From Terriglobia bacterium (GTDB lineage Bacteria > Acidobacteriota > Terriglobia > 20CM-2-55-15), in contig CAXWPJ010000009.1 of assembly GCA_963664115.2 (NCBI GenBank), forward strand, positions 256,001 through 320,000: 64,000 bases of DNA, read 5' to 3'. Shown piece by piece: positions 6,584 to 26,060 of this stretch (its first letter is position 1; the number at the start of each line of letters is the position of its first letter). A model generated the notes under the pieces. The model was not told where the DNA came from, made no database searches, and worked only from the letters and a program-made list of their open reading frames with translations. The position numbers were made by a program, and so were the translations under genes.

Positions 6584-7105
6584 ATGACCTTGCTCACCGC
6601 AACCTTCTACTACATGGCGACCGCCTCGGTGGTGAGCGCCCTACTGGCCGTGACACGGAGGAATCCCCTGCATAGCCTGCTCTGGGTGCTGGCGCTCTTC
6701 GGTCACGTCGCAGGCATCTTCCTGTTGCTGGAGGCTGAGTTTCTGGCGGTCGTGCAGGTCGTCGTGTATGCCGGGGCAATCTTGATCTTCTACCTCTTCG
6801 TCATGATGCTGCTCGACCTGTCGGACGAGGACACCCGGCCGCGGTTCGGCAATCATTGGCCCTTCGCTGCGGGTGCGGGACTCCTCTTTGTTGCCATAGC
6901 GTTTATCGCCCAACTCGAGCGGTCGAACATGGTCGGAATCAGGGGCACACCCTCGGGGGAAGGCCCGCTTCAAGGAAGCCTGGAAGGGATTGGTTTGGCG
7001 CTTTTCGGCCCATTTGCGTTGCCATTCGAAATGGTATCCCTGGTGCTGCTGGCCGCAATCGTCGGGGCTGTCGTTCTTGCACAGAGGAGGGTGCCCCGGC
7101 CATGA
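6584..7105 (+). CDS. nuoJ: NADH-quinone oxidoreductase subunit J
   Basis: RRNPLHSLL, AEFLAVVQVVVYAGAILIFYLFVMML, PFEMVSLVLLAAIVGAVVLA. Confidence 0.95.
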   Translation: MTLLTATFYYMATASVVSALLAVTRRNPLHSLLWVLALFGHVAGIFLLLEAEFLAVVQVVVYAGAILIFYLFVMMLLDLSDEDTRPRFGNHWPFAAGAGLLFVAIAFIAQLERSNMVGIRGTPSGEGPLQGSLEGIGLALFGPFALPFEMVSLVLLAAIVGAVVLAQRRVPRP

Positions 7106-7407
7106 TTGTGCCGACGAACGTGGTTCTGGGATTGAGCGCCATCCTGTTTGGAATTGGAGTATTCGGATTCCTGGCCCGTCGCAACGTTATCCTCATGCTC
7201 GTCTCGATTGAGGTCATGCTCAACGCAATTAACGTCAGTCTGGTCGGATTCAGCCAACACTTCGAAAATCCGCACGGCCAGATCATGGCCCTTTTCGTGA
7301 TCGCGGTGGCAGCCGCCGAAGCAGGGATCGGTCTGGGGCTTGTGATCGCCTTGAACCGGAACAAACCCGGGGTCCGCGTAGGAGACCTTACCGAACTCAA
7401 ATGGTAA
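7102..7407 (+). CDS. nuoK: NADH-quinone oxidoreductase subunit K
   Basis: ATG 7102; LFGIGVFG..RRNVILMLVSIEVMLNAIN, GQIMALFVIAVAAAEAGIGL. Confidence 0.95.
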   Translation: MIVPTNVVLGLSAILFGIGVFGFLARRNVILMLVSIEVMLNAINVSLVGFSQHFENPHGQIMALFVIAVAAAEAGIGLGLVIALNRNKPGVRVGDLTELKW

Positions 7408-8867
7408 CGTTTTCGGTTATGCCGCTGCTTGCGGTGCTCGTCTCGGCGGTGGGTGCGCTCCTGATCGCATGCACCGGCGAGCGTCGTGCCAATTTAAGGG
7501 AGTTCTGGTCGATTGCGGCGGGTGTCGGGCTGTTCGCTCTCGTCGCGAGCATGATCCCGAAGATATTAGCCGGTGGAACGGTGGAATTTGTGCTGTTCCG
7601 GATCCTCCCGGGCATCGATCTCGCCTTTAGAGCGGATGCCTTCGGCCTACTTTTTGCCTCCGGGGCGGCACTGCTCTGGATCTTGACCTCGTTCTATTCG
7701 ATCGGTTACATGCGTTCTCTCAAGGAGCACGCACAGACCCGTTACTATTCGTGCTTCGCACTGGCGCTCACCACGACGATTGGAGTGGCCTTCTCTGCCA
7801 ACCTCTTCACGCTGTTTGTATTTTACGAGGGCTTGACGCTGGTCACCTATCCACTCGTAGGGCACAACGAAACGGCCGAAGCCCGAGCGGGAGCCCGTAA
7901 ATATGTAATTTATCTGCTGGGTGCGGCCAAGGTCTTCCTGGTAGCCGCCATTGTGCTGACCTATAACGTCGCCGGGACCCTGGACTTCCGCAGTGGCGGA
8001 ATAATGCCGGCTGAACTGGTGAGCGAGCAGCCCACGCTTCTTTTTATGATCTTCGCCCTGTTCCTGTTTGGATTCGCCAAGAACGCACTGATGCCGCTAC
8101 ATAGCTGGTTACCGGCTGCAATGGTTGCGCCGACGCCGGTGAGCGCGCTTCTGCATGCGGTGGCTGTCGTCAAGACGGGTGTGTTCTCCACGCTCCGGGT
8201 CTTTCTCTTCATCTTCGGTCCCGAGGCCATGAGGGAACTCGGCGCCGACCAGCTGGCACTGGGCTTTGCAGCGGTAACGATTGTGGTCGGATCGCTTCTA
8301 GCGCTCAGCCAGGATAACCTCAAAGCCAGGCTGGCGTTCTCCACGGTCAGCCAGCTTTCCTACATCATCCTGGGCGCAGCACTCTTGAACTCCAGCGGAG
8401 TGATGGGCGGAGTCGCCCATATCACCAACCACGCCGTATCGAAGATCACGCTGTTCTTCTGCGCCGGTTCGATTTATGTATCCGCACACAAAACCGAAAT
8501 CAGCCAGATGTCCGGCCTGGCAAAACGCATGCCATGGACCATGGCTGCGTTTGCGCTGGCGTCCTTGAGCGTGGTGGGTATACCCATTACCAGCGGGTTC
8601 GTTTCCAAGTGGTACCTCGCCATCGGCGCGGTAGAGGGTCAGAGCTTTATCTTGTTGGGTGTACTTTTAGTCAGCTCGCTTCTAAACGCGGTCTACCTCG
8701 GCTCGATTGTGTACAAGGCCTACTTCGAAAAGGAGTCATCGCCGAACGAAGAAATCCGCGAAGTAGGGTGGATCGTTGCACCGTTGACAATTAGCGCAGC
8801 CCTAAGCCTGCTACTGGGACTCTACTCTGACCCTGTACTGGCACTGGCGGGAAGGGTCCTTCAGTGA
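7401..8867 (+). CDS. MrpD-like antiporter-type membrane subunit (extra proton-pumping module)
   Basis: FYEGLTLVTYPLV, KNALMPLHSWLPAAMVAPTPVSALLHAVAVVK, LKARLAFSTVSQL, GFVSKW; no transverse helix. Confidence 0.88.
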   Translation: MVTFSVMPLLAVLVSAVGALLIACTGERRANLREFWSIAAGVGLFALVASMIPKILAGGTVEFVLFRILPGIDLAFRADAFGLLFASGAALLWILTSFYSIGYMRSLKEHAQTRYYSCFALALTTTIGVAFSANLFTLFVFYEGLTLVTYPLVGHNETAEARAGARKYVIYLLGAAKVFLVAAIVLTYNVAGTLDFRSGGIMPAELVSEQPTLLFMIFALFLFGFAKNALMPLHSWLPAAMVAPTPVSALLHAVAVVKTGVFSTLRVFLFIFGPEAMRELGADQLALGFAAVTIVVGSLLALSQDNLKARLAFSTVSQLSYIILGAALLNSSGVMGGVAHITNHAVSKITLFFCAGSIYVSAHKTEISQMSGLAKRMPWTMAAFALASLSVVGIPITSGFVSKWYLAIGAVEGQSFILLGVLLVSSLLNAVYLGSIVYKAYFEKESSPNEEIREVGWIVAPLTISAALSLLLGLYSDPVLALAGRVLQ

Positions 8868-9127
8868 ATTTCTTGGAGCGACAGCTGGAAGATAAGGTTC
8901 GTTTCGCCCGGATCAAGCGCCTCTTTTACGTCGTCCTGGGCGTAATAGCCGTTGCCGAAATCGTTCTGCCGCTCGTCTTCGAAGGAGAGGAACACCACTT
9001 CGGATTCGAGGGCTTCCCAGCCTGGGGCTCGCTCTATGGGCTGATCTCCTGCGTGGCGATCATCGTCGTATCGAAACTCATCGGAAAGGCGTGGCTCATG
9101 CGCCGTGAGAACTACTATGACTCTTGA
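8864..9127 (+). CDS. Small two-TM membrane protein between the two MrpD-like genes
   Basis: 87 aa, two hydrophobic segments, FEGFPAWGSLYGL..C and C-terminal LMRRENYYD; overlaps both neighbouring genes. Confidence 0.8.
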   Translation: MNFLERQLEDKVRFARIKRLFYVVLGVIAVAEIVLPLVFEGEEHHFGFEGFPAWGSLYGLISCVAIIVVSKLIGKAWLMRRENYYDS

Positions 9128-10883
9128 GTGGGTACACCCGGGGCTCCTGCTCATCCTGGGCGCATGGCTCCTGGTTTTCCTCAAAGGTCCGATAAAACGC
9201 ATAGCAATGCTGGTCCTGCCAGGGGCGGCGCTGGTCGATTGCTTGTTGATGTCGCCTGGAACCTATGGTGCCGTGACGTTCATGGGCCAGGACCTCGTGC
9301 TTGGCCGCGTGGACAGTCTGAGCCTGGTATTTTCCTACATCTTCTCGCTCATGGCCTTCGTGGGCATGGTCTACGCCCTCCATGTAAAGGACGACTTCCA
9401 GCACGTCAGCGCCTTGATTTATGTGGGCGGCGCGCTCGGAGTCACGTTTGCCGGCGATTTCCTCTCCCTTTACCTCTTTTGGGAGCTCATGGCGATCTCG
9501 TCGGTGCTCCTGGTGTGGCTGCGACGGGAACCGTCAGCAGTAGCGGCCGGCTTCCGCTATCTTCTGATGCACATAGTCGGAGGACTCGTCCTCCTGGCAG
9601 GGATCGTAGTGCACTGGTCCCAGACCGGATCGCTTGCCTTCGAAGATATGGGCGTTTTTTCCGGCGGCCTGGCCTGGACCCTGATTCTCGTGGCCTTCCT
9701 TCTCAACGCGGCCGTTCCGCCTTTGGGGGCATGGCTTCCGGACGCCTACCCCGAGGCCACTGTTACAGGGGCGGTCTTCATGACGGCCTTTACAACCAAG
9801 TCCGCGGTCTATGTCTTGATCCGCGGCTTTGCGGGGACGGAACTCCTGATCTGGTTGGGAGGGGCGATGGCAGTCTATGGCGTGGTCTACGCCGTATTGG
9901 AAAACGACGCGCGACGCTTATTGGCCTACCACATCATCAGCCAGGTCGGCTACATGGTGTGTGGTGTAGGCGTCGGCACAGCGCTGGCCATAAACGGCGC
10001 CACGGCGCACGCGTTTGCTCACATCCTGTATAAGGCGCTTCTCTTTATGGGAGCCGGCGCCGTTATCCAGATGACAGGCGTGAGAAAGCTGAGCGAGATG
10101 GGGGGGCTCTACAAGACGATGCCGATCACGCTCGGGCTCTATATGATCGGCGCCTTTGCGATATCGGCCGTCCCGCTGTTCAGCGGTTTCGTAAGCAAGT
10201 CCATGGTGATTTCCGCAGCCGGCGAGGAACACCTGACGACGATCTTTCTGATGCTGACACTGGCCTCGGCCGGCACCTTCCTGCACACCGGCCTCAAGCT
10301 ACCGTATTACATGTTCTTTGCCAAGGACTCGGGCCTGCGCCCCAAGGAAGCGCCCACGAACATGCTCGTGGCCATGGGCCTGGCTGCCCTCGGATGTGTT
10401 CTGATCGGAGTGTTGCCCGGACTTCTGTACGCGCACCTTCCGAACCCGGTGGACTTCATTCCATATACGCTGACGCACGTGATGAGCACACTCGGAATGT
10501 TAGGCTTTACGGCCCTGGGATTTTTCCTGCTCCTCAAGCACCTCGATCCGGAACCCAAGGTCAGCCTCGACACGGATTGGTTCTACCGCCGTCCTTCGCT
10601 CAGGTTGGTGAGTCTGGTCCAGGGCCCACTGGCGCGTCTTGAGTACGGCTTTGTTGGAGAGATCTATGAGCGTCTGGTTCGCGGCCCTGTGTTGGGAGTA
10701 GCGAATCTGTTTCGCAAACTCGACAGCCTCGTCGTCGATTCCGCAATCGTAGGCGTGGGTCGTTCCACCCAGAGCTTGAGTCAGGTCCTGAAGACGATGG
10801 AGAACGGCCAGGTCCAGTATTACGGGCTGATCATGGCCGCAGGAATTCTCGCACTTTTGGCTCTGGCAGTGTTCTTTTCATGA
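9117..10883 (+). CDS. MrpD-like antiporter subunit carrying a NuoL-type C-terminal amphipathic helix plus a terminal TM (probable NuoL substitute)
   Basis: FWELMAISS, WLPDAYPEATVTGAVFMTAFTTK, RRLLAYHIISQVG, HILYKALLFM; C-terminus ...LDSLVVDSAIVGVG...MENGQVQYYGLIMAAG resembles NuoL helix HL and TM16. Confidence 0.85.
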   Translation: MTLEWVHPGLLLILGAWLLVFLKGPIKRIAMLVLPGAALVDCLLMSPGTYGAVTFMGQDLVLGRVDSLSLVFSYIFSLMAFVGMVYALHVKDDFQHVSALIYVGGALGVTFAGDFLSLYLFWELMAISSVLLVWLRREPSAVAAGFRYLLMHIVGGLVLLAGIVVHWSQTGSLAFEDMGVFSGGLAWTLILVAFLLNAAVPPLGAWLPDAYPEATVTGAVFMTAFTTKSAVYVLIRGFAGTELLIWLGGAMAVYGVVYAVLENDARRLLAYHIISQVGYMVCGVGVGTALAINGATAHAFAHILYKALLFMGAGAVIQMTGVRKLSEMGGLYKTMPITLGLYMIGAFAISAVPLFSGFVSKSMVISAAGEEHLTTIFLMLTLASAGTFLHTGLKLPYYMFFAKDSGLRPKEAPTNMLVAMGLAALGCVLIGVLPGLLYAHLPNPVDFIPYTLTHVMSTLGMLGFTALGFFLLLKHLDPEPKVSLDTDWFYRRPSLRLVSLVQGPLARLEYGFVGEIYERLVRGPVLGVANLFRKLDSLVVDSAIVGVGRSTQSLSQVLKTMENGQVQYYGLIMAAGILALLALAVFFS

Positions 10884-12346
10884 GTTATCCGGTCCTGACA
10901 GTTACGACGTTTCTGCCCCTCGCGGGGGGTGTTCTGATCCTGCTCCTGGGCAGCGAGCGACTCGCTCGCTGGGTCGCCCTCATCACCACTCTGGCCACCG
11001 TAGCCGTTTCGGTCCCGCTTTACAGGGGATTCGACAAGACATCGAGCACACTGCAATTCGTGGAGTCGCGGGACTGGATCCCGAATTGGAACATCGCTTA
11101 CGGCATGGGCGTGGACGGAATCAGCCTTCCATTCATCTTCCTTGCCTCGCTGCTCGGCGTCCTGTGCATCGGCGCCTCATGGTCCGCGATCCAAACTCGA
11201 ACGCGAGAGTTCTATGCGGCGCTCCTGGTGGCGGAAACCGCGATGATCGGCCTTTTCGCGGCCTCGAACCTTTTTCTCTTCTATATTTTCTGGGAACTCA
11301 TCCTGGTTCCGGTCTTTCTCCTGATCGGCGTCTGGGGAGGTCCGGGGCGTGTCTACGCGTCGATCAAGTTTTTGCTCTTCACTCTCGCCGGGAGCGTTTT
11401 CATGCTTGTGGGCATGATCGCTCTCTACCAGGCATTGGGCACATTGGACTTCAGGGCCCTGGCCCTGGCCCGGGACAGCCTCGATTCGAGCCAGCAAGCC
11501 TGGCTCTTCGCGGCCTTTCTGGCCGCTTTCGCAGTCAAGGTGCCCATGTTTCCGGTACATACCTGGCTCCCGGACGCTCACACGGAAGCTCCAACGGCGG
11601 GGAGCGTGATCCTGGCCGGAATTCTTCTCAAAATGGGCGCATACGGGTTCCTGCGTGTCTCGATTCCGGTTCTTCCCGACGCCGTGCAACTCTTCTTGAC
11701 GCCGATGCTGGTCGTCTCCGTGGTGGCTATTGTCTATGGCGCATATGTGACCCTTGTCCAGACGGACGTAAAACGTCTCATCGCGTTCTCGAGCATCAGC
11801 CACATGGGTTTCGTCACGCTGGGTATTTTCACACTCGACCAGGGCGGGGTCGAAGGAGCGGTCCTGCAGATGATCAACCACGGGATCATTTCGGCGGCAC
11901 TATTCTTGTGCGTCGGCATGATCTACGAGCGCACTCACACGCGGGAAATCAACGATTACGGGGGAGTTGCCAAAGCCGCACCGGTCTATTCGACCTTGCT
12001 CGGCCTGTTTTGTCTGGCAGGAACGGGATTCCCAGGTCTGAATTCATTCGTAGGGGAGTTTCTGATCATCGGTGGCGCTTTCAGAACTCACGCCTTGCTG
12101 GGGGCGATGGCGGTCTGGGGTGTAGTCCTTGGAACGGCGTACCTCGTCTGGCTCTACTACCGCGTTGTTATGGGCCAGATCAACCCCGGGCTCGAGGGGC
12201 TCAAGCTAGAGCTCAATATTCGTGAGGTGGCGACGCTTGCCCCTCTGGTCTTATTCGCGGTGTGTCTCGGCCTCTACCCTGATCTCGTCCTCTCTTATTT
12301 GCGAGCTCCCGTGGCCGCGCTACTTGCCGGGGGGGTCACCCCGTGA
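10880..12346 (+). CDS. nuoM: NADH-quinone oxidoreductase subunit M
   Basis: GVDGISL, FYIFWELILVP, KVPMFPVHTWLPDAHTEAPT, KRLIAFSSISHMG, MINHG. Confidence 0.95.
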   Translation: MSYPVLTVTTFLPLAGGVLILLLGSERLARWVALITTLATVAVSVPLYRGFDKTSSTLQFVESRDWIPNWNIAYGMGVDGISLPFIFLASLLGVLCIGASWSAIQTRTREFYAALLVAETAMIGLFAASNLFLFYIFWELILVPVFLLIGVWGGPGRVYASIKFLLFTLAGSVFMLVGMIALYQALGTLDFRALALARDSLDSSQQAWLFAAFLAAFAVKVPMFPVHTWLPDAHTEAPTAGSVILAGILLKMGAYGFLRVSIPVLPDAVQLFLTPMLVVSVVAIVYGAYVTLVQTDVKRLIAFSSISHMGFVTLGIFTLDQGGVEGAVLQMINHGIISAALFLCVGMIYERTHTREINDYGGVAKAAPVYSTLLGLFCLAGTGFPGLNSFVGEFLIIGGAFRTHALLGAMAVWGVVLGTAYLVWLYYRVVMGQINPGLEGLKLELNIREVATLAPLVLFAVCLGLYPDLVLSYLRAPVAALLAGGVTP

Positions 12347-13764
12347 ACGGCGCCACTCTTTCTGACGTCGCCCTGCTGGTCCCGGAACTGATTCTGGTCG
12401 GGATGTCCGTCGCATTGATCGTTCTCGCACGACGTATAAAGAACACGCCGATTGCGGCAACAGGGACAGTCCTTGCTGCATTGGGCGCTGGCATGTACTC
12501 CTTCTGGGCGGTGTCAGAAGGCACTCAAGTCGGCTTTGGCGGCATGCTCATTCTGGACGGCTACTCCCAATTCTTCAAGGTGCTCATTGCCGCCACTCTG
12601 GCTCTGGTCGCGCTTCTGTCGGTGAGAAGCCACGATCTGGAAGAGGTGCCCCGCGGCGAGTACCATGCCCTGCTCCTGTTGGCTTCGACGGGGATGATGC
12701 TTGCAGTTTCATCACTGGATCTGCTGACCCTCTACTTGGGCCTAGAGCTTATGACGCTGTGCTCCTACATCCTGGTCGGGATCGCGGTGGACAGACCGAC
12801 GTCAAACGAGGCCGCGATCAAGTATTTCCTTTTGGGGTCATTCGCCTCAGCCCTGCTTCTCTACGGGATCGCCCTGACCTACGGCCTCACCGGCGCTACC
12901 AACTATCAGGCCGTTGCCTCGGTAATTACGGGTCAGGGGCTCACGGAGAACCCGCTTCTGCTAGTGGCCATCGGACTGGTAGCGGCCGGGCTCGCATTCA
13001 AGATTGCGGTGGTGCCGTTTCACGCCTGGGCGCCGGACGCTTACCAGGGTGCAGGTGCACCTGTCGCGGGCTTCCTGGCGGCCGGTTCCAAGGCCGTCGG
13101 CCTGGCCGCTCTGGGAAGGGTTTCCCTGACCGCGTTCGGCGAGGAAACCTACGTCTTGTCCCTGGTTCTTGCGGGACTCGCAGCCCTTTCGATTGTCGTC
13201 GGCAGCATCGTGGCCCTGGCCCAGACCGACATGAAACGTTTGCTGGCCTATTCTGCAATCGCGCACGCGGGTTACGCACTGATGGGCCTCATGGCCGGTA
13301 CGAGGGAGGGGATTTCTGCAACCATGACCTACGCCTTCTTCTACGTCTTTATGACGCTCGGAACATTCGGCGTGGTCATCGCTCTGGGCGAGCGTGGTCG
13401 AACTCTGGATGGATACAAGGGCCTGGCTCGGCAGCGACCCGGAACAGCCGCCCTCATGTTACTTTTTCTCTTGTCTCTGACCGGCATCCCTCCAACGGGG
13501 GGCTTCGTCGCCAAGTTTGTCGTTATCCTGAGCGCTGTGCGCGCAGGCTACGTGGGACTGGCTGTACTTGCGGTGGCCTGCAGCGTAATTTCAGCATTCG
13601 TGTACATGCGGGTAGCCGTCTTCATGTACATGAGAGAGCCCGAGGAGCCGGCGCCTTCGAGCTTCCCGGTGGCGGTGTCCGCCGCTCTCGCCGTGGCAGC
13701 GCTGGTCACTTTAATTGGTGGGATCTCCCCGGGCATTTTGACGGTCTGGGCGGTGTCTCCGTGA
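12343..13764 (+). CDS. nuoN: NADH-quinone oxidoreductase subunit N
   Basis: YLGLELM, EAAIKYFLLG, FKIAVVPFHAWAPDAYQGA, KRLLAYSAIAHAGY, GIPPTGGFVAK. Confidence 0.95.
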   Translation: MNGATLSDVALLVPELILVGMSVALIVLARRIKNTPIAATGTVLAALGAGMYSFWAVSEGTQVGFGGMLILDGYSQFFKVLIAATLALVALLSVRSHDLEEVPRGEYHALLLLASTGMMLAVSSLDLLTLYLGLELMTLCSYILVGIAVDRPTSNEAAIKYFLLGSFASALLLYGIALTYGLTGATNYQAVASVITGQGLTENPLLLVAIGLVAAGLAFKIAVVPFHAWAPDAYQGAGAPVAGFLAAGSKAVGLAALGRVSLTAFGEETYVLSLVLAGLAALSIVVGSIVALAQTDMKRLLAYSAIAHAGYALMGLMAGTREGISATMTYAFFYVFMTLGTFGVVIALGERGRTLDGYKGLARQRPGTAALMLLFLLSLTGIPPTGGFVAKFVVILSAVRAGYVGLAVLAVACSVISAFVYMRVAVFMYMREPEEPAPSSFPVAVSAALAVAALVTLIGGISPGILTVWAVSP

Positions 13765-13792: not shown

Positions 13793-14146
13793 ATGAACGC
13801 ATACATCGGGATAGCGGTCAGTTTCGTTCTGGCTGCAGGGATCACGGGCTTGATGGTCATCCTGGCCTCCACGCTGGGAAAGAAGAATTCCACGCCTGTA
13901 AAGTTGTCGCCGTTCGAATGTGGGGTGGATCCGTTTTCGCTCCCTATCGGCAAGTTGGCAATCAAGTTTTACCTGACTGCTATTCTGTTCATCCCCTTCG
14001 ATGTCGAGCTGGTGTTCCTCTATCCCTGGGCCGTGCTTTACCGCCAGCTGGGGACCTTGGGACTGGTTGAAATGGGACTCTTTCTGGGCATCCTGATGGC
14101 AGGTTATGTCTACGCCTGGGACAATGGCGCTCTTGACTGGCAATGA
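13793..14146 (+). CDS. nuoA: NADH-quinone oxidoreductase subunit A
   Basis: KLSPFECG, FYLTAILFIPFDVELVFLYPWA, GALDW. Confidence 0.95.
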   Translation: MNAYIGIAVSFVLAAGITGLMVILASTLGKKNSTPVKLSPFECGVDPFSLPIGKLAIKFYLTAILFIPFDVELVFLYPWAVLYRQLGTLGLVEMGLFLGILMAGYVYAWDNGALDWQ

Positions 14147-14196
14147 CTGGAAATGACTGGCAATGACTGGAAATGACTGGCAATGCAGGACAATGA
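14134..14196 (+). repeat. Tandem 10-bp repeat TGACTGG(C/A)AA x5 plus one degenerate unit, spanning the nuoA stop
   Basis: TGACTGGCAA TGACTGGAAA TGACTGGCAA TGACTGGAAA TGACTGGCAA TGCAGGACAA TGA. Confidence 0.92.
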
Positions 14197-14219
14197 TCCC
14201 GCAATTCTGTAAATAAATC

Positions 14220-14723
14220 ATGTTCAACGACACATCGTTTCTAACGAGCCGGCTCGACGACGCGGTTGGCTGGGCACGAAAGTATTCAATCTTCCAGTAT
14301 CCGTTCGTGACTGCGTGCTGCGGGATGGAGTACATGGCGACGGCCTGCTCTCATTACGACGTGGACCGTTTCGGAGCGGGCTTCCCAAGATTTTCTCCTC
14401 GCCAGGCCGACGTACTTTTCGTCGTCGGCACGATCAGTCACAAGATGGCGCCTGTCCTCCTACGCATCCATGAGCAGATGGCGGATCCCAAGTGGGTGGT
14501 CGCTTTCGGCGTGTGCGTGTGCACGGGCGGTTTTTATGACAACTACGCCACAGTGATGGGCATCGATACCATCATGCCGGTGGATGTTTATATACCTGGA
14601 TGCCCACCGCGGCCGGAGATGGTCCTCGACGGCCTGATGAAGCTGCAGGACAAGATCCAGGACCATGGAGTAAGCGGCAAGCGCGTCGCGCCTGAACCTC
14701 GTCCGGACCTCTTCGAAGCATGA
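14220..14723 (+). CDS. nuoB: NADH-quinone oxidoreductase subunit B
   Basis: TACCGMEYM, SPRQAD, PVDVYIPGCPPRPE (N2 ligands). Confidence 0.95.
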   Translation: MFNDTSFLTSRLDDAVGWARKYSIFQYPFVTACCGMEYMATACSHYDVDRFGAGFPRFSPRQADVLFVVGTISHKMAPVLLRIHEQMADPKWVVAFGVCVCTGGFYDNYATVMGIDTIMPVDVYIPGCPPRPEMVLDGLMKLQDKIQDHGVSGKRVAPEPRPDLFEA

Positions 14724-15301
14724 ATACCACATCTTTGATCGAATCCCTCACGGACCGCTTTCCCGCTGCGGTGACCTCGTCCCATGCCTACCGGGGTGAC
14801 GCAACACTTATTGTTCGTCCGAAGAGCCTCGTCGACGTGGCGCGGTTTCTCAAGGAGGACCCGGCCTTAAAAATGAATTACCTCATGGACCTGACTGCCG
14901 TCGACTACTCCGCATTCGGGAAACACCCCACGCCGGCCTTTTTCACTTCTTCGGGAGTGACGGTGAAGCCGTCTTCCGAGATTCCGGATGAAGAACCGTG
15001 GCCCGGCCCTCCGGACGAAGGGCGGTTTGCGGTCGTGTACCACTTCTTCTCGACCACCCACAAACATCGGCTACGACTGGTTGTCCCGGTAGAGGAGAGT
15101 GTGGCTCAGGTGGATTCGCTGACCGCGTTGTGGCCGGGCGCCGACTGGCTTGAACGCGAGGTCTGGGACATGTTCGGGATCGGTTTTACGGGACATCCCG
15201 ACTTGAAGCGGATTCTCATGTACGAAGGGTTCGAGGGTCACCCGCTACGGAAGGACTATCCCGTCAAAAAGCGTCAGCCGCTGATCGGACCGACCAACTA
15301 A
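14720..15301 (+). CDS. nuoC: NADH-quinone oxidoreductase subunit C
   Basis: DLTAVDY, WLEREVWDMFGIGFTGHPDLKRILMYEGFEGHPLRKDYP. Confidence 0.95.
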   Translation: MNTTSLIESLTDRFPAAVTSSHAYRGDATLIVRPKSLVDVARFLKEDPALKMNYLMDLTAVDYSAFGKHPTPAFFTSSGVTVKPSSEIPDEEPWPGPPDEGRFAVVYHFFSTTHKHRLRLVVPVEESVAQVDSLTALWPGADWLEREVWDMFGIGFTGHPDLKRILMYEGFEGHPLRKDYPVKKRQPLIGPTN

Positions 15302-15310
15302 CAGCGTTCT

Positions 15311-16693
15311 ATGGAAAAGAACAGCCCATCGCCGGAGACGGCGCCGACACCCCGGGGCGACCCGGCAGAACTCGAAACGCGGGACATGCTCATCAACGTG
15401 GGTCCCGCTCATCCCGCCATGCACGGGATCATCCGGATCGTAGCTAAGCTCGACGGGGAACAGATCGAGGATGCCGAAGTAGAGATCGGCTACCTTCACC
15501 GTGGTTTTGAAAAGATGGCTGAAACGGTCGACTATAACGGCGTCATGCCTTACACCGACCGGCTCAACTATGTCTCGCCGCTCATCAACAATATGGGCTA
15601 TTGCATGGCTGTGGAAAAGCTCCTTGGGATCTCGGTCCCGGAGCGCTGCCACTACGTTCGGGTCATTCTCTCCGAGATCTCGAGGCTCTCGGATCACCTG
15701 ACCTGCGTCGGTGCAACCGCCATGGAGTTGGGGGCCTTCAGCGTGTTTCTGTACATGATCAAGGCCCGGGAGTACCTGTGGGAGTTGGTGGAGAAGGTCA
15801 CCGGAGCCCGGTTGACAGTCAGCTATTGCCGCGTGGGCGGTGTCAAAGCGGACCTTCCCGATGACTTCGCCGAACCTTGCCGCAAGGCCTTTGAGGAAAC
15901 CCGCAAGGTCCTCGCTGAGGCGGATGGGCTCCTCACCCGCAATCGCATTTTCACCGACCGTATGACAGGGACAGGAGTGCTCTCCGTCGACGACGCCATA
16001 GGCTACGGAATCACCGGCCCCTTCCTTCGTGCGAGCGGCGCGGACTACGACGTGCGCAAAGACTGCCCCTACGCCGTCTACGACCGGATACCATTCGACG
16101 TGCCAGTGGGTAGCAAAGGCGACAACATGGATCGCTATCTGGTACGCATGGAGGAAATGCAACAGTCCATGCGGATCGTGGAAACAGCGCTTGCCGACAT
16201 ACCGCCCGGCCCCGTCATGGTCAATCCTGAGACGGGGCGCCCCATCCCGGCCGCCGATATGGTAGACCTGGCCAAAGTGGGCGACATCAGAGCCATTTCA
16301 GGCAGGCCCGCCGTCGTCGATCCGACACTCGAGGGGGCCAGTCGGGCCGAATATCCGTCTATTGCTGCGGATGAGAAACGCGTTTTTCTACCTGCTAAAG
16401 AGGATACTTACGGCAACATCGAAGGGCTCATGAACCACTTCAAGCTGGTCATGTTGGGCCACGGCCTGCGCCCCCCAAAAGGGGAAGTCTATTTCCCGGT
16501 GGAAGGCGCCAACGGAGAACTCGGGTTCTACGTAGTGAGCGACGGAGAGGGACGTCCCTACCGGGTCCGGGTCCGCCCGCCCTGCTTCGCTATCATGTCG
16601 GCCCTGCCCCATCTCCTTGTCGGGGGCATGATGGCCGATATGGTCCCCACCTTTGGGTCCGTGAACATGATAGGCGGGGAACTCGACCGGTGA
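15311..16693 (+). CDS. nuoD: NADH-quinone oxidoreductase subunit D
   Basis: NVGPAHPAMHG, GYLHRGFEK, DRLNY, C-terminal GELDR; no NiFe CxxC motifs. Confidence 0.95.
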   Translation: MEKNSPSPETAPTPRGDPAELETRDMLINVGPAHPAMHGIIRIVAKLDGEQIEDAEVEIGYLHRGFEKMAETVDYNGVMPYTDRLNYVSPLINNMGYCMAVEKLLGISVPERCHYVRVILSEISRLSDHLTCVGATAMELGAFSVFLYMIKAREYLWELVEKVTGARLTVSYCRVGGVKADLPDDFAEPCRKAFEETRKVLAEADGLLTRNRIFTDRMTGTGVLSVDDAIGYGITGPFLRASGADYDVRKDCPYAVYDRIPFDVPVGSKGDNMDRYLVRMEEMQQSMRIVETALADIPPGPVMVNPETGRPIPAADMVDLAKVGDIRAISGRPAVVDPTLEGASRAEYPSIAADEKRVFLPAKEDTYGNIEGLMNHFKLVMLGHGLRPPKGEVYFPVEGANGELGFYVVSDGEGRPYRVRVRPPCFAIMSALPHLLVGGMMADMVPTFGSVNMIGGELDR

Positions 16694-18486
16694 CGCTCAA
16701 GGAAATGGAAGACGCGGCGGAGGAAATCCTCCGACGCTATGAGTACCCGAAGGCGGCGATGCTGCCTGTCCTGTGGCTCGTACAGCAGAACCAGGGCTAC
16801 ATCTCACCTGAGGCAGAAGCTTGGGTGGGCCACCTTCTTGGAGTGTCTATCGCCCACGTGCGCGAGGTAGTCTCCTTTTACAATATGTTCCATACCCAGC
16901 CCGTCGGACGGCGGGAACTTCGGGTCTGCACGAGTCTGCCATGCCGCCTCCGCGGAGGGCACGATGTGTTGGAACGCATCAAGGACGGATTAAAGATCAG
17001 CCCGGGTGAGACCACGCCCGGCCAGGAGGTGACGCTCACCGAGGTCGAATGCTTGTGTGCTTGCGAGATGGCGCCCATGGCCCAGCTCGACGAACGCTTT
17101 GTCGGCCCTCTTGACGGTGGGGCCGTAGCCACCCTCATCGAGGACGCTTTGAGCGAACCCGGGAGCGGGGAGTCGACCCCGGAGCCCGACCCCTACATTT
17201 GCACGGATGGGCCGGTTCTCTCCACGCGCTTCAACGATCCGGAGGGGACCTGGTTCGAAACTTACGTCGCCGATGACGGATACGCCGCCTCCCGGCGAGT
17301 GCTCACCTCGATGACGCCGAGGGAGGTGATCGACGAGGTCGCCAAGGCCAAGCTCCGCGGTCTCGGCGGGGCGGGTTTTCCGGCCAGCCGAAAGTGGTCC
17401 TTCATACCCAAGGATTCGACCGAGCCCAAGTACCTCGTAGTCAACGCAGACGAGGGCGAACCCGGGACTTTCAAGGACCGTTACATTCTGGAAAGGGACC
17501 CGCACGCCCTGATCGAGGGCATGATCATCGCAGCCTATGCGATCGGCAGTCATAAGGCCTACGTCTACATTCGGGGCGAGTATTTCAGGTCCGCCAAACG
17601 TTTACAACGCGCCCTGGACGAGGCCTATAACACGAATTGGCTGGGCAAGAACATTCAGGGGACAGGCTTTGACCTGGACGTGGTCATCCACCGGGGCGCC
17701 GGCGCCTACATTTGTGGAGAAGAGACTGCGCTCCTGACGTCGCTCGAGGGCGGCAAAGGCTTTCCCAAGATCAAACCCCCTTTTCCGGCTATTTCGGGCC
17801 TCTTCAAATGCCCCACGATCGTCAACAATGTGGAAACCCTGGCCTGTGTCCCTTTTATCCTGCGCAACGGAGCCGAGCGCTTTGCCGAAATAGGTTCCGA
17901 GACCCAGGGTGGAACACGCCTCTTCTGTGTGAGCGGGCACGTGGTCCGGCCCGGCGTTTACGAGACGTCGGTCAGCATCACCCTGCGGGAACTGATCGAG
18001 CAGCATGCCGGGGGCGTACGCGATGGCAAGAAGCTTAAGGCTGTCATTCCCGGGGGGATCTCAGCCAAGATTCTCAGGGCTGACGAGATCGATGTGGGCA
18101 TGGATTTCGACTCGCTCAGGGGGGCCGGAACCATGGCTGGATCCGGGGGCGTAATCGTCATGGATGAAACCACCTCCATGGTCGAGGCGCTCGAGTCCGC
18201 GGCCCGGTTCTTCGCTGACGAGTCCTGCGGACAGTGTTCCCCCTGCCGGGAGGGGACAGGCTGGGTGCATCGCATCGTCGACCGCATCACCGAAGGGCAG
18301 GGACGTGTCGAGGATCTGGACGACCTTCTCGCTATTGCCGGCGATATGGAAGGCAACACTATCTGCGTTTTCGCGGACGCGGCGGCCTGGCCAGTCCAGT
18401 CCTACATCATGAAATTCAGGGACGAGTTCGAGGATTACATCCGTACCGGCCAGCGGGTCGGGGGAAAGGAAGCTGCGCATGCCTAA
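16690..18486 (+). CDS. nuoEF: Fused NuoE-NuoF (2Fe-2S N1a domain plus FMN/NADH domain)
   Basis: CTSLPC...ECLCACEMAP followed by GLGGAGFP, NADEGEPGTFKDR, GAGAYICGEETALL, ESCGQCSPCREG, TICVFADAA. Confidence 0.92.
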   Translation: MTLKEMEDAAEEILRRYEYPKAAMLPVLWLVQQNQGYISPEAEAWVGHLLGVSIAHVREVVSFYNMFHTQPVGRRELRVCTSLPCRLRGGHDVLERIKDGLKISPGETTPGQEVTLTEVECLCACEMAPMAQLDERFVGPLDGGAVATLIEDALSEPGSGESTPEPDPYICTDGPVLSTRFNDPEGTWFETYVADDGYAASRRVLTSMTPREVIDEVAKAKLRGLGGAGFPASRKWSFIPKDSTEPKYLVVNADEGEPGTFKDRYILERDPHALIEGMIIAAYAIGSHKAYVYIRGEYFRSAKRLQRALDEAYNTNWLGKNIQGTGFDLDVVIHRGAGAYICGEETALLTSLEGGKGFPKIKPPFPAISGLFKCPTIVNNVETLACVPFILRNGAERFAEIGSETQGGTRLFCVSGHVVRPGVYETSVSITLRELIEQHAGGVRDGKKLKAVIPGGISAKILRADEIDVGMDFDSLRGAGTMAGSGGVIVMDETTSMVEALESAARFFADESCGQCSPCREGTGWVHRIVDRITEGQGRVEDLDDLLAIAGDMEGNTICVFADAAAWPVQSYIMKFRDEFEDYIRTGQRVGGKEAAHA

Positions 18487-20131
18487 GCTAAGCATTGACG
18501 GCCGCGAGGTGAGCGTCGATCAGGGAACCACGGTCATCCAGGCGGCGGAGACGCTGGGGATTTTCGTTCCGCGCTACTGCTACCACCCCGGGCTCTCTAT
18601 CGCGGGCAACTGCCGCATCTGCCTCGTGGAAGTGGAGAAATCCCCCAAGCTCCAGATCGCATGCAACACTCCTGCGACCGAGGGGATGGTTGTTCACACA
18701 AAGAGCGACACCGCCCAGGACGGACGTCGCTCGGTACTGGAGTTCCTCCTGGCCAATCACCCGCTCGACTGCCCGGTTTGCGACCAGTCCGGTGAGTGCG
18801 ACTTACAGAATTTCTACCTGGACTTCGGCCTCTACAATCCGCGCTTCAGGGAGCGTAAAGTCAAGAAAAAGAAAGCTGTGACGCTGGGCCCGTATGTGAT
18901 GCTGGACCAGGAGCGCTGCATCCTCTGTTCCCGGTGCGTGCGCTTCACGGACGAGATCACCGAGACCGGAGAGTTCGGCATCTTCAATCGCGGAGACCGC
19001 TCCGAGCTGGGGCTGTACCCTGGCAAGGAACTCGACAATCGGTATTCGACCAACGTGGTGGACATCTGCCCCGTCGGTGCGCTGACCGAGCGGAAGTTCC
19101 GTTTCAAGACGCGGGTCTGGTACCTCTCCAGCGCCCCGACCGTCTGCAACGGTTGCAGTCAGGGCTGCAACATGGATTTGCATTACGTTCTGGACCGCCC
19201 TCACCTGAACGACGGCGCGCGGCTGCTGCGTGTCAAGCCACGATACAACCCGGATGTAAACCAATGGTGGTTGTGCGATGAAGGGCGCTATGGCCTCGAT
19301 TGGATCGACCAGGCTCGGCTCCGGAAGGTACGCGGGCCGTCGGGGGACGGGGCCGAGGGCGCAGATGCTCAGAATGCCACAAATACAACGGATACGACAT
19401 GGGACACGGCCCTTCGAACAATCTCAGCAGCTCTCTCGGTCCTGCCCAAGGGACGGATCGGGGTAATTGCCTCAGCCCGACTCACGATCGAAGAGCTGTT
19501 TCTGATCCGGGAGATTTTCCAGCGCGGCCTCGGCGCCCAGGTCAGTGCCTCTGTTCCAGAAATGCCAGGCTCTTCCGACGATTTCCTCATTAAGGCGGAT
19601 AAGAACCCCAACACCATGGGGGCGGAGCTGCTGGGACTATCCGGTCCGAACGCGCCGGACGCAGGACAGATCCTGGACGAGGCACTCGCCGGGAACCTTG
19701 ACGCCCTGTGGGTTATGGGGCACGACCTTGTCGCACTCTTCGGTGAAGAGAAGGCCCGACAACTCCGAGACAAGGTGGGTCTCTTCGTCTTCTCCGGAAC
19801 GAACGAAAACCGAACGGTTCCCTTGGCCCATTGGGCCTTGCCGAGCGCGGCCTATGTGGAAAAAGACGGGACCTTCGTCAACTGCCACGGACGCGTCCAG
19901 CGAATCGGCCAGGCGTTTCCTCCGCTTGAGGACTCCCGTGAGGACTGGCGCATTCTCCTGGAATTGGCCCGGCTGCTAATGCTCGAACTCGACTGGCACG
20001 AACCCCAGGACATCTTCGCGGCAGTGGCCTCCACCGAGGCGCCTTTCGCGGGAATGAGCTACGAGACGATAGGAGATCAGGGGGCTGGGGTCCGGCCAAC
20101 CGAGCCCGCTGAAGAGGTATCCGTCACGTGA
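18479..20131 (+). CDS. nuoG: NADH-quinone oxidoreductase subunit G (short, 550 aa)
   Basis: CYHPGLSIAGNCRIC, HPLDCPVCDQSGECDLQ, RCILCSRCVRF, CNGCSQGC...CDEGR (N7-type cluster). Confidence 0.92.
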   Translation: MPKLSIDGREVSVDQGTTVIQAAETLGIFVPRYCYHPGLSIAGNCRICLVEVEKSPKLQIACNTPATEGMVVHTKSDTAQDGRRSVLEFLLANHPLDCPVCDQSGECDLQNFYLDFGLYNPRFRERKVKKKKAVTLGPYVMLDQERCILCSRCVRFTDEITETGEFGIFNRGDRSELGLYPGKELDNRYSTNVVDICPVGALTERKFRFKTRVWYLSSAPTVCNGCSQGCNMDLHYVLDRPHLNDGARLLRVKPRYNPDVNQWWLCDEGRYGLDWIDQARLRKVRGPSGDGAEGADAQNATNTTDTTWDTALRTISAALSVLPKGRIGVIASARLTIEELFLIREIFQRGLGAQVSASVPEMPGSSDDFLIKADKNPNTMGAELLGLSGPNAPDAGQILDEALAGNLDALWVMGHDLVALFGEEKARQLRDKVGLFVFSGTNENRTVPLAHWALPSAAYVEKDGTFVNCHGRVQRIGQAFPPLEDSREDWRILLELARLLMLELDWHEPQDIFAAVASTEAPFAGMSYETIGDQGAGVRPTEPAEEVSVT

Positions 20132-21219
20132 TAGAAGTTCTGATCATCAAAATTACACTGGCGGGAATCGTTTTCTTCACGGTCTTGAACTTCGCAGGGT
20201 TTCATACCTGGGCGGAGCGGAAACAGTCGGCTCTGATCCAGGATAGAATCGGGGCCAACCGTGCGGATATTCTCGGCTTTAGGATGCTGGGACTCTTTCA
20301 CGGCATCGCCGACGCGATCAAGTTGTTCACCAAGGAGGACATCGTCCCGACGGGAGCAGACAGGACACTCCATACGCTGGCCCCATTCTTTTCGGTGTTC
20401 TTCGCCCTCGTCGCGTTCGCAGTGATTCCCTTCGGGGACACATTGATTCTCGGGGACAGGGTCATTGAACTCCAGGTCGCAACGTTTGACGCCGCGCTCC
20501 TCTACGTTTTCGCCATGCTCTCCCTCGGAGTCTACGGCGTGATCCTCGCGGGCTTTGCCTCGCCCAACAACTACGCAATCATGGGAAGCCTCAGGGCCAC
20601 CGCACAGATGATCTCCTATGAAATCGCACTGGGAGTCTCTGTTGTTGGAGTGATCATGGTTTACGGGACCATGGATCTGTCGGAACTCGTGCGGGCTCAG
20701 GGGCAGATGATCGGCGGCTGGATTCCTTTCTGGGGCATCGTCGCCCAGCCCGTGGCCTTTGTCGTATTTGTGACCGCGGCACTGGCCGAAACCAAGCGGA
20801 TGCCCTTTGATATGCCGGAAGGGGAATCAGAGATCATCGGGTACTTTGTGGAGTACAGCGGCATGAAGTTCGGGATGTTCTTCCTCACGGACTTCCTAGA
20901 GACCATCATGGTGGCATGCTTGTCGACCACACTCTTTTTCGGCGGGTGGCAGGTACCCTTCCTGTTGCCGGACGGGTTCCACTTCCCCTGGGGAGCGGAG
21001 ATACTCATGCCCAATTGGCTCTACGCCCTGCTGGGTGTGGTGAGCTTTTCGACCAAGGTCGTGGTTTTCTGTTGGATCTTCATGCAGCTTCGCTGGACCC
21101 TGCCACGATTCCGTTATGATCAGCTCATGAAACTGGGCTGGCGAGGGCTGTTCCCGATCGCGGTGGCCAATATTGTGGTCACGGCCGGCGTGCTGATGTT
21201 TTTCGGAGAGGGGTTCTAA
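20128..21219 (+). CDS. nuoH: NADH-quinone oxidoreductase subunit H
   Basis: ERKQSALIQDRIGANR, ADAIKLFTKED, QMISYE, PFDMPEGESE, WTLPRFRYDQLM. Confidence 0.95.
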   Translation: MIEVLIIKITLAGIVFFTVLNFAGFHTWAERKQSALIQDRIGANRADILGFRMLGLFHGIADAIKLFTKEDIVPTGADRTLHTLAPFFSVFFALVAFAVIPFGDTLILGDRVIELQVATFDAALLYVFAMLSLGVYGVILAGFASPNNYAIMGSLRATAQMISYEIALGVSVVGVIMVYGTMDLSELVRAQGQMIGGWIPFWGIVAQPVAFVVFVTAALAETKRMPFDMPEGESEIIGYFVEYSGMKFGMFFLTDFLETIMVACLSTTLFFGGWQVPFLLPDGFHFPWGAEILMPNWLYALLGVVSFSTKVVVFCWIFMQLRWTLPRFRYDQLMKLGWRGLFPIAVANIVVTAGVLMFFGEGF

Positions 21220-21878
21220 TGGCCGTAAGAGTTGTCTCAAGGCCCGAGTTGACTTTCTGGGAGAAGCTCTACATCCCGCAGATCGTCTCCGGCTTCAGGA
21301 TCACGTCCAGACACTTCTTCCGAAACCTCTTTCTCCATACGGCCCACAAACTGGGCCTGTTCAAACACCTTGCTGCCTCCGCCACCATACAGTATCCCGA
21401 AGAACTCCGGCCGCTGATGTCACGCTACCGAAGCCGCCACCGGCTGACCGTGCGCGACGACAACACACCACGCTGCGTCGGATGTATGCTGTGTGAAACG
21501 GTCTGCCCGGCCCACTGCATTACGATCGTGGCCGGGGAACACCCCGACCCCAATGTCGAGAAATATCCGATCCGCTTCGACATCGATCTGGGGGTGTGCG
21601 TCTATTGTGGTTACTGCGTCGAGGTATGCCCTGAGGATGCGATCCGGATGGACACGGGAATTCTTGATCTGGCGGCTTACTCGAGGGAGGCCATGCAGTT
21701 GGACATCCACGAACTCATGGACCCAAAGCTGCACAAACCCATCCCCCAGTGCGACCTCGATTTCCCGCACAAGTGCGAGGTGAGCGGGGGCGAGATGAAG
21801 GGAAGCTGGGAGGGATTGGTGGAACATCGGCCAGCGGACTCACCACAGGTCCCGGCAGAGTCGGCAAAGCAGGGATAA
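21219..21878 (+). CDS. nuoI: NADH-quinone oxidoreductase subunit I
   Basis: TIQYPEE, CVGCMLCETVCP and CVYCGYCVEVCP (two 4Fe-4S motifs). Confidence 0.95.
   Translation: MAVRVVSRPELTFWEKLYIPQIVSGFRITSRHFFRNLFLHTAHKLGLFKHLAASATIQYPEELRPLMSRYRSRHRLTVRDDNTPRCVGCMLCETVCPAHCITIVAGEHPDPNVEKYPIRFDIDLGVCVYCGYCVEVCPEDAIRMDTGILDLAAYSREAMQLDIHELMDPKLHKPIPQCDLDFPHKCEVSGGEMKGSWEGLVEHRPADSPQVPAESAKQG
21306..21811 (+). repeat. Direct repeat copy 1 (~506 bp of nuoI)
   Basis: Aligns ungapped to 28037-28542 (offset 6731) with about 6 substitutions by eye. Confidence 0.95.
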
Positions 21879-24933: not shown

Positions 24934-25215
24934 ATGGCGAAACGACGGAATTTTTCAGCAGATTTCAAAGCGAAGGTAGCGCTGGCCGCGATGCGTGGCG
25001 ACGGCACGATGGCCGAATTGGCGGCGCGGTACAAGATCCATCCGAACATGATCACGAAGTGGAAGCGTGATGCGCTTGATAGCGTTAAAGAAGCATTCCA
25101 GCGAGGCCGGGATCCATCGGCCCGGAACCACGAGGACGAGATCAAAGACCTGCAGGCCAAGATCGGTGAACTGGTCGTGGAACGGGATTTTTTAGCACGA
25201 GCCTTCAATCGATGA
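24934..25215 (+). CDS. IS3 transposase OrfA (HTH)
   Basis: RRNFSADFKAKVALAA...ELAARYKIHPNMITKWK...LQAKIGELVVERDFL. Confidence 0.92.
   Translation: MAKRRNFSADFKAKVALAAMRGDGTMAELAARYKIHPNMITKWKRDALDSVKEAFQRGRDPSARNHEDEIKDLQAKIGELVVERDFLARAFNR
25188..25194 (+). other. -1 programmed frameshift slippery site T TTT TTA
   Basis: In the OrfA frame GAT TTT TTA; a -1 shift enters the OrfB frame. Confidence 0.7.
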
Positions 25216-26060
25216 GCTTGGGTCGAAGGCGCGAGGTGGTCGAACCGGGCCATGAGCAGCTCAGTGTGGTCCGGCAATGCGACTTGATCGGGTTGAGCCG
25301 TTCGAGTTGGTACTATCGGCCACGGGGTGAGAGTGATCGCAATCTGGACCTGATGCGCGTGATCGACGAGGCGTATCTGAAGATGCCCTGGTATGGGTCC
25401 AGGCAGATGACGCGTCATCTGAAACGTCTCGGCTACGATGTGGGCCGGAAGCGGGTACGCCGACTAATGCGGTTGATGGGGCTGCGCTCGGTGGCACCGC
25501 AGACGTCCCGGAGAAACCCGGCTCATCCGGTGTACCCATATCTACTCAACGACATTGCCGTGGAGCGGGCGAATCAAGCGTGGTCTACCGACGTGACGTA
25601 TATCCCGATGGCGCACGGATTCTTATATCTGGTCGCGATCATGGACTGGCATACGCGGAAGGTGTTGTCCTGGCGGCTGTCCAACACCCAGGACACGACG
25701 TTTTGCCTTGAAGCCCTCGACGAGGCGATCGAGGAATACGGCAGTCCGGAAATCTTCAACACCGATCAGGGCAGCCAGTTCACCAGCAAGGCCTGGACGG
25801 ACCGACTTAAAGAACGAGGTATCCGGATCTCCATGGACGGCAAGGGGCAATGGATCGACAACGTTTTCATCGAACGCCTATGGCGCTCGATCAAATACGA
25901 ATGCGTTTATCTAAACGCCTTCAGTGACTTCAAAGATGCCCGGCACCACATAGGTGTCTGGATGAACTATTACAATAACGACCGCCCGCATTCCAAACTC
26001 GACGATCTCACGCCGAGCGAAGCCTACGCGGGAACACGGCCACTGACCTCGGCAGCATAA
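25212..26060 (+). CDS. IS3 transposase OrfB (DDE integrase core)
   Basis: WSTDVTY, FNTDQGSQFT, DNVFIERLWRSIKYE, YNNDRPH. Confidence 0.95.
   Translation: MSLGRRREVVEPGHEQLSVVRQCDLIGLSRSSWYYRPRGESDRNLDLMRVIDEAYLKMPWYGSRQMTRHLKRLGYDVGRKRVRRLMRLMGLRSVAPQTSRRNPAHPVYPYLLNDIAVERANQAWSTDVTYIPMAHGFLYLVAIMDWHTRKVLSWRLSNTQDTTFCLEALDEAIEEYGSPEIFNTDQGSQFTSKAWTDRLKERGIRISMDGKGQWIDNVFIERLWRSIKYECVYLNAFSDFKDARHHIGVWMNYYNNDRPHSKLDDLTPSEAYAGTRPLTSAA

Follow-up and report, generated by a model that had tools for sequence, protein, structure and literature searches.

A NuoL-type helix of extended length on an MrpD-like subunit in a green-type complex I operon, and its possible role in clamping a four-subunit arm

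The locus raises the question of whether the length of a C-terminal helix reports how many antiporter-like subunits a complex I holds, and whether each of them pumps. For the window (the whole stretch of 64,000 nucleotides of Terriglobia bacterium DNA), the original prediction was that an MrpD core bears a grafted NuoL-type transverse helix (HL), apparently lengthened by one unit of about 27 residues, and that this helix is the structural ruler showing that an extra pump is physically incorporated. The gene bearing the helix, mrpD2, lies in an operon with the order J K mrpD1 small mrpD2 M N A B C D EF G H I. The features used below are as follows, with MrpD2 residues counted from the ATG at 9117 (the 588-aa form on record).

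6584..7407, + strand: nuoJ (6584-7105) and nuoK (7102-7407), by NCBIfam/Pfam
7401..8867, + strand: mrpD1, antiporter-like core without HL, putative functional NuoL, by profile match and residue alignments
8864..9127, + strand: membrane protein of 87 aa containing two hydrophobic segments, encoded between mrpD1 and mrpD2, by locus comparison
9117..10883, + strand: mrpD2, 588-aa antiporter-like subunit bearing TM15, HL and TM16, by PRK12668 (NCBIfam, 746 bits, cut-off 564) and AlphaFold2 models
9705..9707, + strand: Asn197 of MrpD2, replacing the TM7 ion-pair lysine, by alignments
10470..10529, + strand: TM15 of MrpD2 (residues 452-471), by AlphaFold2, pLDDT 93-97
10575..10655, + strand: HL unit 1 (D487-V513), with D-W-F-Y-R at its start, putatively derived from Mrp D2, by VIA, hhalign and conservation
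10656..10883, + strand: NuoL-type tail (G514-S588) with G-E-I-Y, D536..D541, G564 and TM16 (566-587), by hhalign and PDB profile search
10880..12346, + strand: nuoM, single copy, with active-type triad K298-S242-H234, by profile match and alignments
12343..13764, + strand: nuoN, with junction Tyr234 (inactive type), by profile match and alignments
13793..21878, + strand: nuoA, B, C, D, fused EF, G, H and I, by NCBIfam/Pfam

MrpD1 is PRK08375-like (634 bits, cut-off 663), and the NuoL model TIGR01974 gave 187 for MrpD1 and 152 for MrpD2 against a cut-off of 407.5. Green complex I has two MrpD-like subunits in place of NuoL (PMC9040806), and its 2016 description is summarised in PMC7415380. The same replacement was found here, together with J K ... 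M N ahead of A-G, one nuoM and a small gene between the two MrpD genes. Judged by gene content and order, the operon encodes a green-type complex I. The 87-aa gene is conserved and lies between mrpD1 and mrpD2 wherever it was seen, in green and Mrp operons alike; its product had no Pfam match at E 0.1. In 80 related genome loci, one nuoM was followed by nuoN in 75 and the sequence ended before nuoN in five; two nuoM genes were found in none of the 80, and the query operon has one. Complete tails of 99-105 residues were present in 78 of these loci. The closest named relatives are Acidobacteriota, and of 401 genomes from this phylum the family model matched in 50. Within the operon (window 14720-20131), NuoC (193 aa) and NuoD (460 aa) gave split matches and apparently exceed their models in length, NuoE and NuoF are fused, and NuoG, at 550 aa, is short. 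An IS3-family transposase is encoded downstream, at window 25212-26060. The genome has a second nuo locus (C2) with A B C D H I J K L M N and no E F G, and a single nuoEF overall. Between nuoB and nuoC of C2 lies a gene for a SAM methyltransferase (PF02636; L008:16728-17783, - strand), the family of the complex I assembly factor NDUFAF7/MidA.

The C-terminal peptide quoted in the original prediction matched the open reading frame 9105/9117-10883 (+) letter for letter, window position 10569 being the codon of D485 and 10883 the last base of the stop codon. The TM15-HL-TM16 extension that is the hallmark of NuoL/ND5 is present on MrpD2, according to profile searches and AlphaFold2 models, and its HL is amphipathic. 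A [DE]xxY motif was said to occur twice, with the tyrosines 27 residues apart. The spacing (Y490, Y517) and the first site (D487-W-F-Y490) were found as described, but the second site reads G514-E-I-Y517, which resembles the E-[LI]-Y portion of NuoL D-E-L-Y. D487, Y490 and R491 are invariant in 77/77 green-type rows, and Y517 is present in 70/77. By sequence comparison, the two-motif pattern in the tail is not a chance occurrence. In a family profile search, MrpD2 514-588 gave a gap-free alignment with NuoL/NdhF chains in solved structures that begins at the DxxY of those chains (6hum_F, E 6e-8; 8qby_L, E 1.4e-4).

Helix length was taken from the motif Asp to the Gly preceding TM16. It is 77 in the query, 47 in E. 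coli NuoL and 49 in Thermus NuoL. All 81 green MrpD2 proteins (78 genome loci and three rhizobial) fell at 75-77, a length that co-occurs with mrpD1 across green proteins. Canonical Acidobacteriota NuoL proteins measured 50-52 in 16/16, four of the 20 having been dropped with the pattern not matched. Taken instead to the start of TM16, medians were 57 for canonical NuoL, 58 for Mrp-type D2, 82 for green MrpD2 and 82 for long NuoL, with 83 in the query; Mrp-type D2 was variable (19/20 measured, 11 at 55-59 and 8 at 66-84). The HL of MrpD2 is thus predicted to be about 26 residues (~39 Å) longer than that of canonical NuoL, a distance calculated from ~26 residues at 1.5 Å per residue rather than measured. 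About 40 Å beyond canonical NuoL had been anticipated, which agrees with 77 vs 47-52 residues (~39 Å) once the register is fixed by predicted structure; the contrary outcome, a helix of canonical length, was not what we found. The stretch from G514 to G564 spans 50 residues, the canonical NuoL length.

The register of the motifs against NuoL was ambiguous by sequence. MAFFT aligned the NuoL DxxY with the first motif and HMMER with the second, and structure was used because the two disagreed. Two AlphaFold2 models of MrpD2 were built from alignments of 91 and 144 sequences. Both place TM15 at 452-471, followed by a loop, a helix starting at 488 and TM16 at 566-587; the predicted helix extends over 488-560 in model 1 and over 488-539 and 545-564 in model 2. 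The pLDDT of residues 481-500 rose from 53-63 with the shallower alignment to 82 with the deeper one, and was 45-52 in the distal half of the helix (model 2). VIA superpositions yield range ends of predicted models and no residue pairs. On E. coli NuoL, rigid range ends were 505/560, 506/561, 507/562 and 513/568 for model 1 (rmsd 2.6-3.2 Å), and 502/557, 503/558, 505/560, 506/561 and 508/563 for model 2 (rmsd 2.4-2.7 Å). The offset was mostly +55 in both models, with a few rows at +52 or +56, and D487 therefore corresponds to E. coli NuoL D542, and Y490 to Y545. With Thermus NuoL, an offset of 48-49 puts D487 on D535. In looser rows, model residue 542 already falls on E. coli 592-596, where TM16 begins, and about 25 helix residues are left over. 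The first motif is accordingly placed by both models, as a prediction, on MrpD2's own core at the NuoL D542/Y545 site. A shared MrpD loop had been considered for this motif; the motif is indeed common to the MrpD2 of Mrp antiporters, yet it opens the helix.

From position 28 onward, the green tail matched canonical NuoL tails from their DxxY (hhalign, P 99.06, E 1.5e-17, 78 columns), and its first 27 residues matched the start of Mrp-type D2 helices. The Mrp-type D2 tail itself gave no hhalign match to the NuoL tail (P 2.2). These matches bear out the idea of a NuoL-type helix grafted onto an MrpD core. Since the tail matches the Mrp start and then NuoL, HL is a graft that keeps both docking motifs. 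Of the lengthening by one unit of ~27 residues, the extra length stands and a 2M-type internal duplication does not, since the unit is what MrpD2 has kept of the beginning of its Mrp helix. An origin of unit 1 by internal tandem duplication was rejected, as only 6/27 residues are identical to unit 2 and unit 1 matches the Mrp start. We infer that an Mrp-antiporter cassette (D1-small-D2) may have replaced nuoL, and that MrpD2 would have acquired the NuoL helix from its DxxY onward while retaining its own first 27 residues. In a quick tree, in which rhizobia were represented by L040-42 only, green MrpD2 came out as a single branch with a support of 95, next to Mrp-type D2 in an unresolved fork, so that this tree shows no direction of transfer. 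Twenty further loci of the family contained no green operon; 16 had a D0-D1-D2 trio and four had D2 alone, and Pfam confirmed Mrp antiporter genes in 5/5 loci scanned of those 20. Mrp antiporter operons at L043-L062 showed three MrpD-like genes and no MrpA. In the genome studied here, which is 97% complete, tblastn with one query gene set found no match to mrpE, F, G, B or C at 1e-8.

Such a long helix could be taken to show that a fourth subunit is incorporated, but equally long NuoLs were found without a fourth gene, and one 102-residue helix with a single nuoM. Among 20 long NuoL loci, chosen by a truncated model match, 19 measured 76-78 and one 85, and a second nuoM was seen in none (L-M-N visible in 17, N out of view in three). 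The second NuoL of this very genome (C2, L008:10108-12174, - strand) has a length of 76, an internal D..vVD repeat and one nuoM. The length of the MrpD2 helix thus fits incorporation without proving it, because operons with a single nuoM can also encode a long NuoL helix, as one does in this genome. NuoM may be used twice in the long-NuoL operons. NuoL insertions have been noted in operons similar to the canonical form, and a doubled nuoM with a longer helix is reported for Manganitrophaceae (PMC9040806, the latter in section 10). In our 80 metagenome loci, a length of 102 was reached six times, with nuoM present twice in two, once in one (L263) and three being uninformative; where nuoM is doubled, the helix is a further 25-26 residues longer. 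At L263:11848-13197, a gap of 1.35 kb separates the MrpD2 with the 102-residue helix from the single nuoM that comes after it, a second nuoM having possibly been lost; tblastn hits exceeding 33% identity and 60 bits included no remnant of one. At L213:1400-3593, a 102-residue MrpD2 directly follows nuoJ-K, with no mrpD1, small gene or following nuoM. One family member (P0212) has a 253-residue tail with several helix-unit repeats.

Whether the additional subunit pumps was then considered from its residues. A 2026 preprint states that proton uptake requires a Lys-Ser-His triad, that losing any ion-pair Lys halts catalysis and that the number of protons is not the same as the number of subunits (bioRxiv 10.64898/2026.10.08.757549); these pumping criteria rest on this one preprint and two species. 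MrpD1 has E143, K227 and a NuoL-type uptake triad, K308-S248-H252, each in 70/70 rows, and NuoM has an active-type triad in 72/76 (by pattern). The TM7 Lys and the Lys-Ser-His triad of NuoL/ND5 are missing from MrpD2 (N197, R266, A219, T223), the triad being on MrpD1. Asn197, Tyr211 at the junction, Thr223 at the TM8 His site and Arg266 at the uptake-Lys site are found in 77/77 green rows, and rhizobial MrpD2 likewise has Asn at TM7. The "extra pump" is therefore doubtful, and the residue patterns suggest that MrpD2 probably does not pump. Ions may nevertheless pass through MrpD2 along a different path, since it retains E123, K228, H298, H302, K306, K361, H390 and K394. MrpD1, for its part, is not a complete NuoL, because Trp replaces NuoL D400.

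We put at roughly 60% the reading in which an HL some 26 residues (~39 Å) longer clamps the row MrpD2-MrpD1-NuoM-NuoN, MrpD1 does NuoL's uptake and MrpD2 is a cap or exit module, with no extra pump. Operon identity, the chimeric tail and the residue patterns enter this reading from sequence and the docking of the first motif from the two models; the rest we infer. The first motif would dock on MrpD2's own core, and the second, NuoL-derived motif on MrpD1 as it does on NuoL. D536 would lie on NuoM and G564/TM16 at NuoN/J/K, so that the tail G514-S588 would cross MrpD1, NuoM and NuoN. MrpD2 would be the outermost module, and is better placed at the end of the row than between MrpD1 and NuoM because its TM7 lysine is absent. 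Uptake would take place in MrpD1 and NuoM, with a stoichiometry of four protons and not five. A more specific version, to which we give slightly less than an even chance, is that the jobs of NuoL are split: MrpD1 would be the uptake "master switch" beneath the strap, and MrpD2 the outermost bearer of the strap, without the universal Glu-Lys ion pair and serving as cap or as proton/Na+ exit. If true, green complex I would be a naturally occurring case in which a subunit lies farther out than the ND5-type switch, and the "fourth pump, fifth proton" view of this family would have to be given up.

Three other explanations have to be weighed. With the same geometry, MrpD2 could be a genuine additional H+ or Na+ pump, giving five ions per turnover, which we consider unlikely. 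Its TM5 Glu, TM8 Lys, TM11 His/His/Lys and TM12 Lys, together with an additional His/Lys pair in TM13, are each found in 77/77 and favor such a pump, as do the retention of the TM7 Lys by 8/14 Mrp-type relatives (Asn in 6/14) and the proposal that complexes with additional subunits would move 5-6 ions (PMC9040806, Fig. 4 legend). Against it stand the Asn at TM7 in every green row and the lack of junction His, uptake Ser and uptake Lys, the TM7 lysine being called absolutely conserved and essential (PMC7419157), as well as the preprint's separation of proton count from subunit count. In another explanation, the extra unit might span a second copy of NuoM (the same gene used twice, or the NuoM of C2) or be mere slack of the graft, and would then say nothing about MrpD1. 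Long NuoL helices with one nuoM are common in the phylum and point to another way of using or tolerating the length; however, the length is constant at 75-77 in 81/81 green proteins, accompanying mrpD1, and a doubled nuoM adds a further 25-26 residues, which makes this the least probable of the three.

Between these two in probability, and quite improbable itself, is an arrangement in which MrpD2 takes the NuoL position beside NuoM, with the second motif as the true docking site and MrpD1 further out; the helix would then be canonical and no ruler. Sequence searches do align just 514-588 to NuoL, from the second motif, mrpD2 adjoins nuoM in gene order, and the total helix of model 1 (73 residues) is similar to the whole NuoL helix, which is ~110 Å long. 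Yet the first motif docks at the NuoL site in both models and is invariant, which the second is not (S-D-V-S in rhizobia), and the Asn of the ion pair would break the charge chain to the subunit bearing the NuoL triad. The clamped row with MrpD2 outermost is of wider interest, as the proton number of complex I and the subunits responsible are under active revision. A natural four-subunit arm, with its order legible from the strap and an outermost member without the essential lysine, offers a ready test of the single-exit model and of whether pumping increases with the number of subunits. Green complex I is also found in the genetically tractable symbiont Sinorhizobium meliloti.

Among known systems, the closest is the rhizobial green complex I. 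Plasmids of S. meliloti and Phyllobacterium share the order J K mrpD1 small mrpD2 M N A-G, and their MrpD2 is 58-59% identical, with Asn at TM7 and the same tail length, 105 residues when counted from the L/I that precedes the motif. The long helix is hence not particular to this DNA; it is general to a published complex type, with the same length in rhizobia. The window differs in having nuoH/I after nuoG on the same strand, a fused nuoE/F and a distinct second motif (G-E-I-Y), which is blurred in rhizobia (S-D-V-S). The 2M complex I, as described in PMC9040806, likewise has four antiporter-like genes and a helix ~26 residues beyond canonical NuoL. Here, in contrast, there is one nuoM, and the helix is borne by an MrpD-type protein rather than by a NuoL carrying an internal insertion; its extra unit was kept from the Mrp start, whereas the long NuoLs examined have the internal D..vVD repeat, and none of the 20 long NuoL loci held a true 2M NuoL.

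Complex_I_3 of Ca. Manganitrophaceae shares the MrpD1/MrpD2 pair, and its MrpD2 is described with a 26-residue insertion absent from rhizobial MrpD2 (PMC9040806). With two nuoM and this further insertion, it differs from the query, which has neither and whose length of 77 is as in rhizobia; the two loci resembling Complex_I_3 (L217 and L219) measure 102. The three-MrpD Mrp operons (mrpE F G B B C D0 D1 small D2) have the D1-small-D2 cassette and the first motif in common with the window, and differ in their shorter helix (median 58), a tail unrelated by hhalign to that of NuoL and the lack of nuo genes. We found no paper on the lost lysine of MrpD2 or on the subunit order of green complex I, in a search that mostly did not extend to subscription journals. 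Both the complex type and the idea linking helix length to subunit number are already published, and to these the window adds a further member and a sharper hypothesis.
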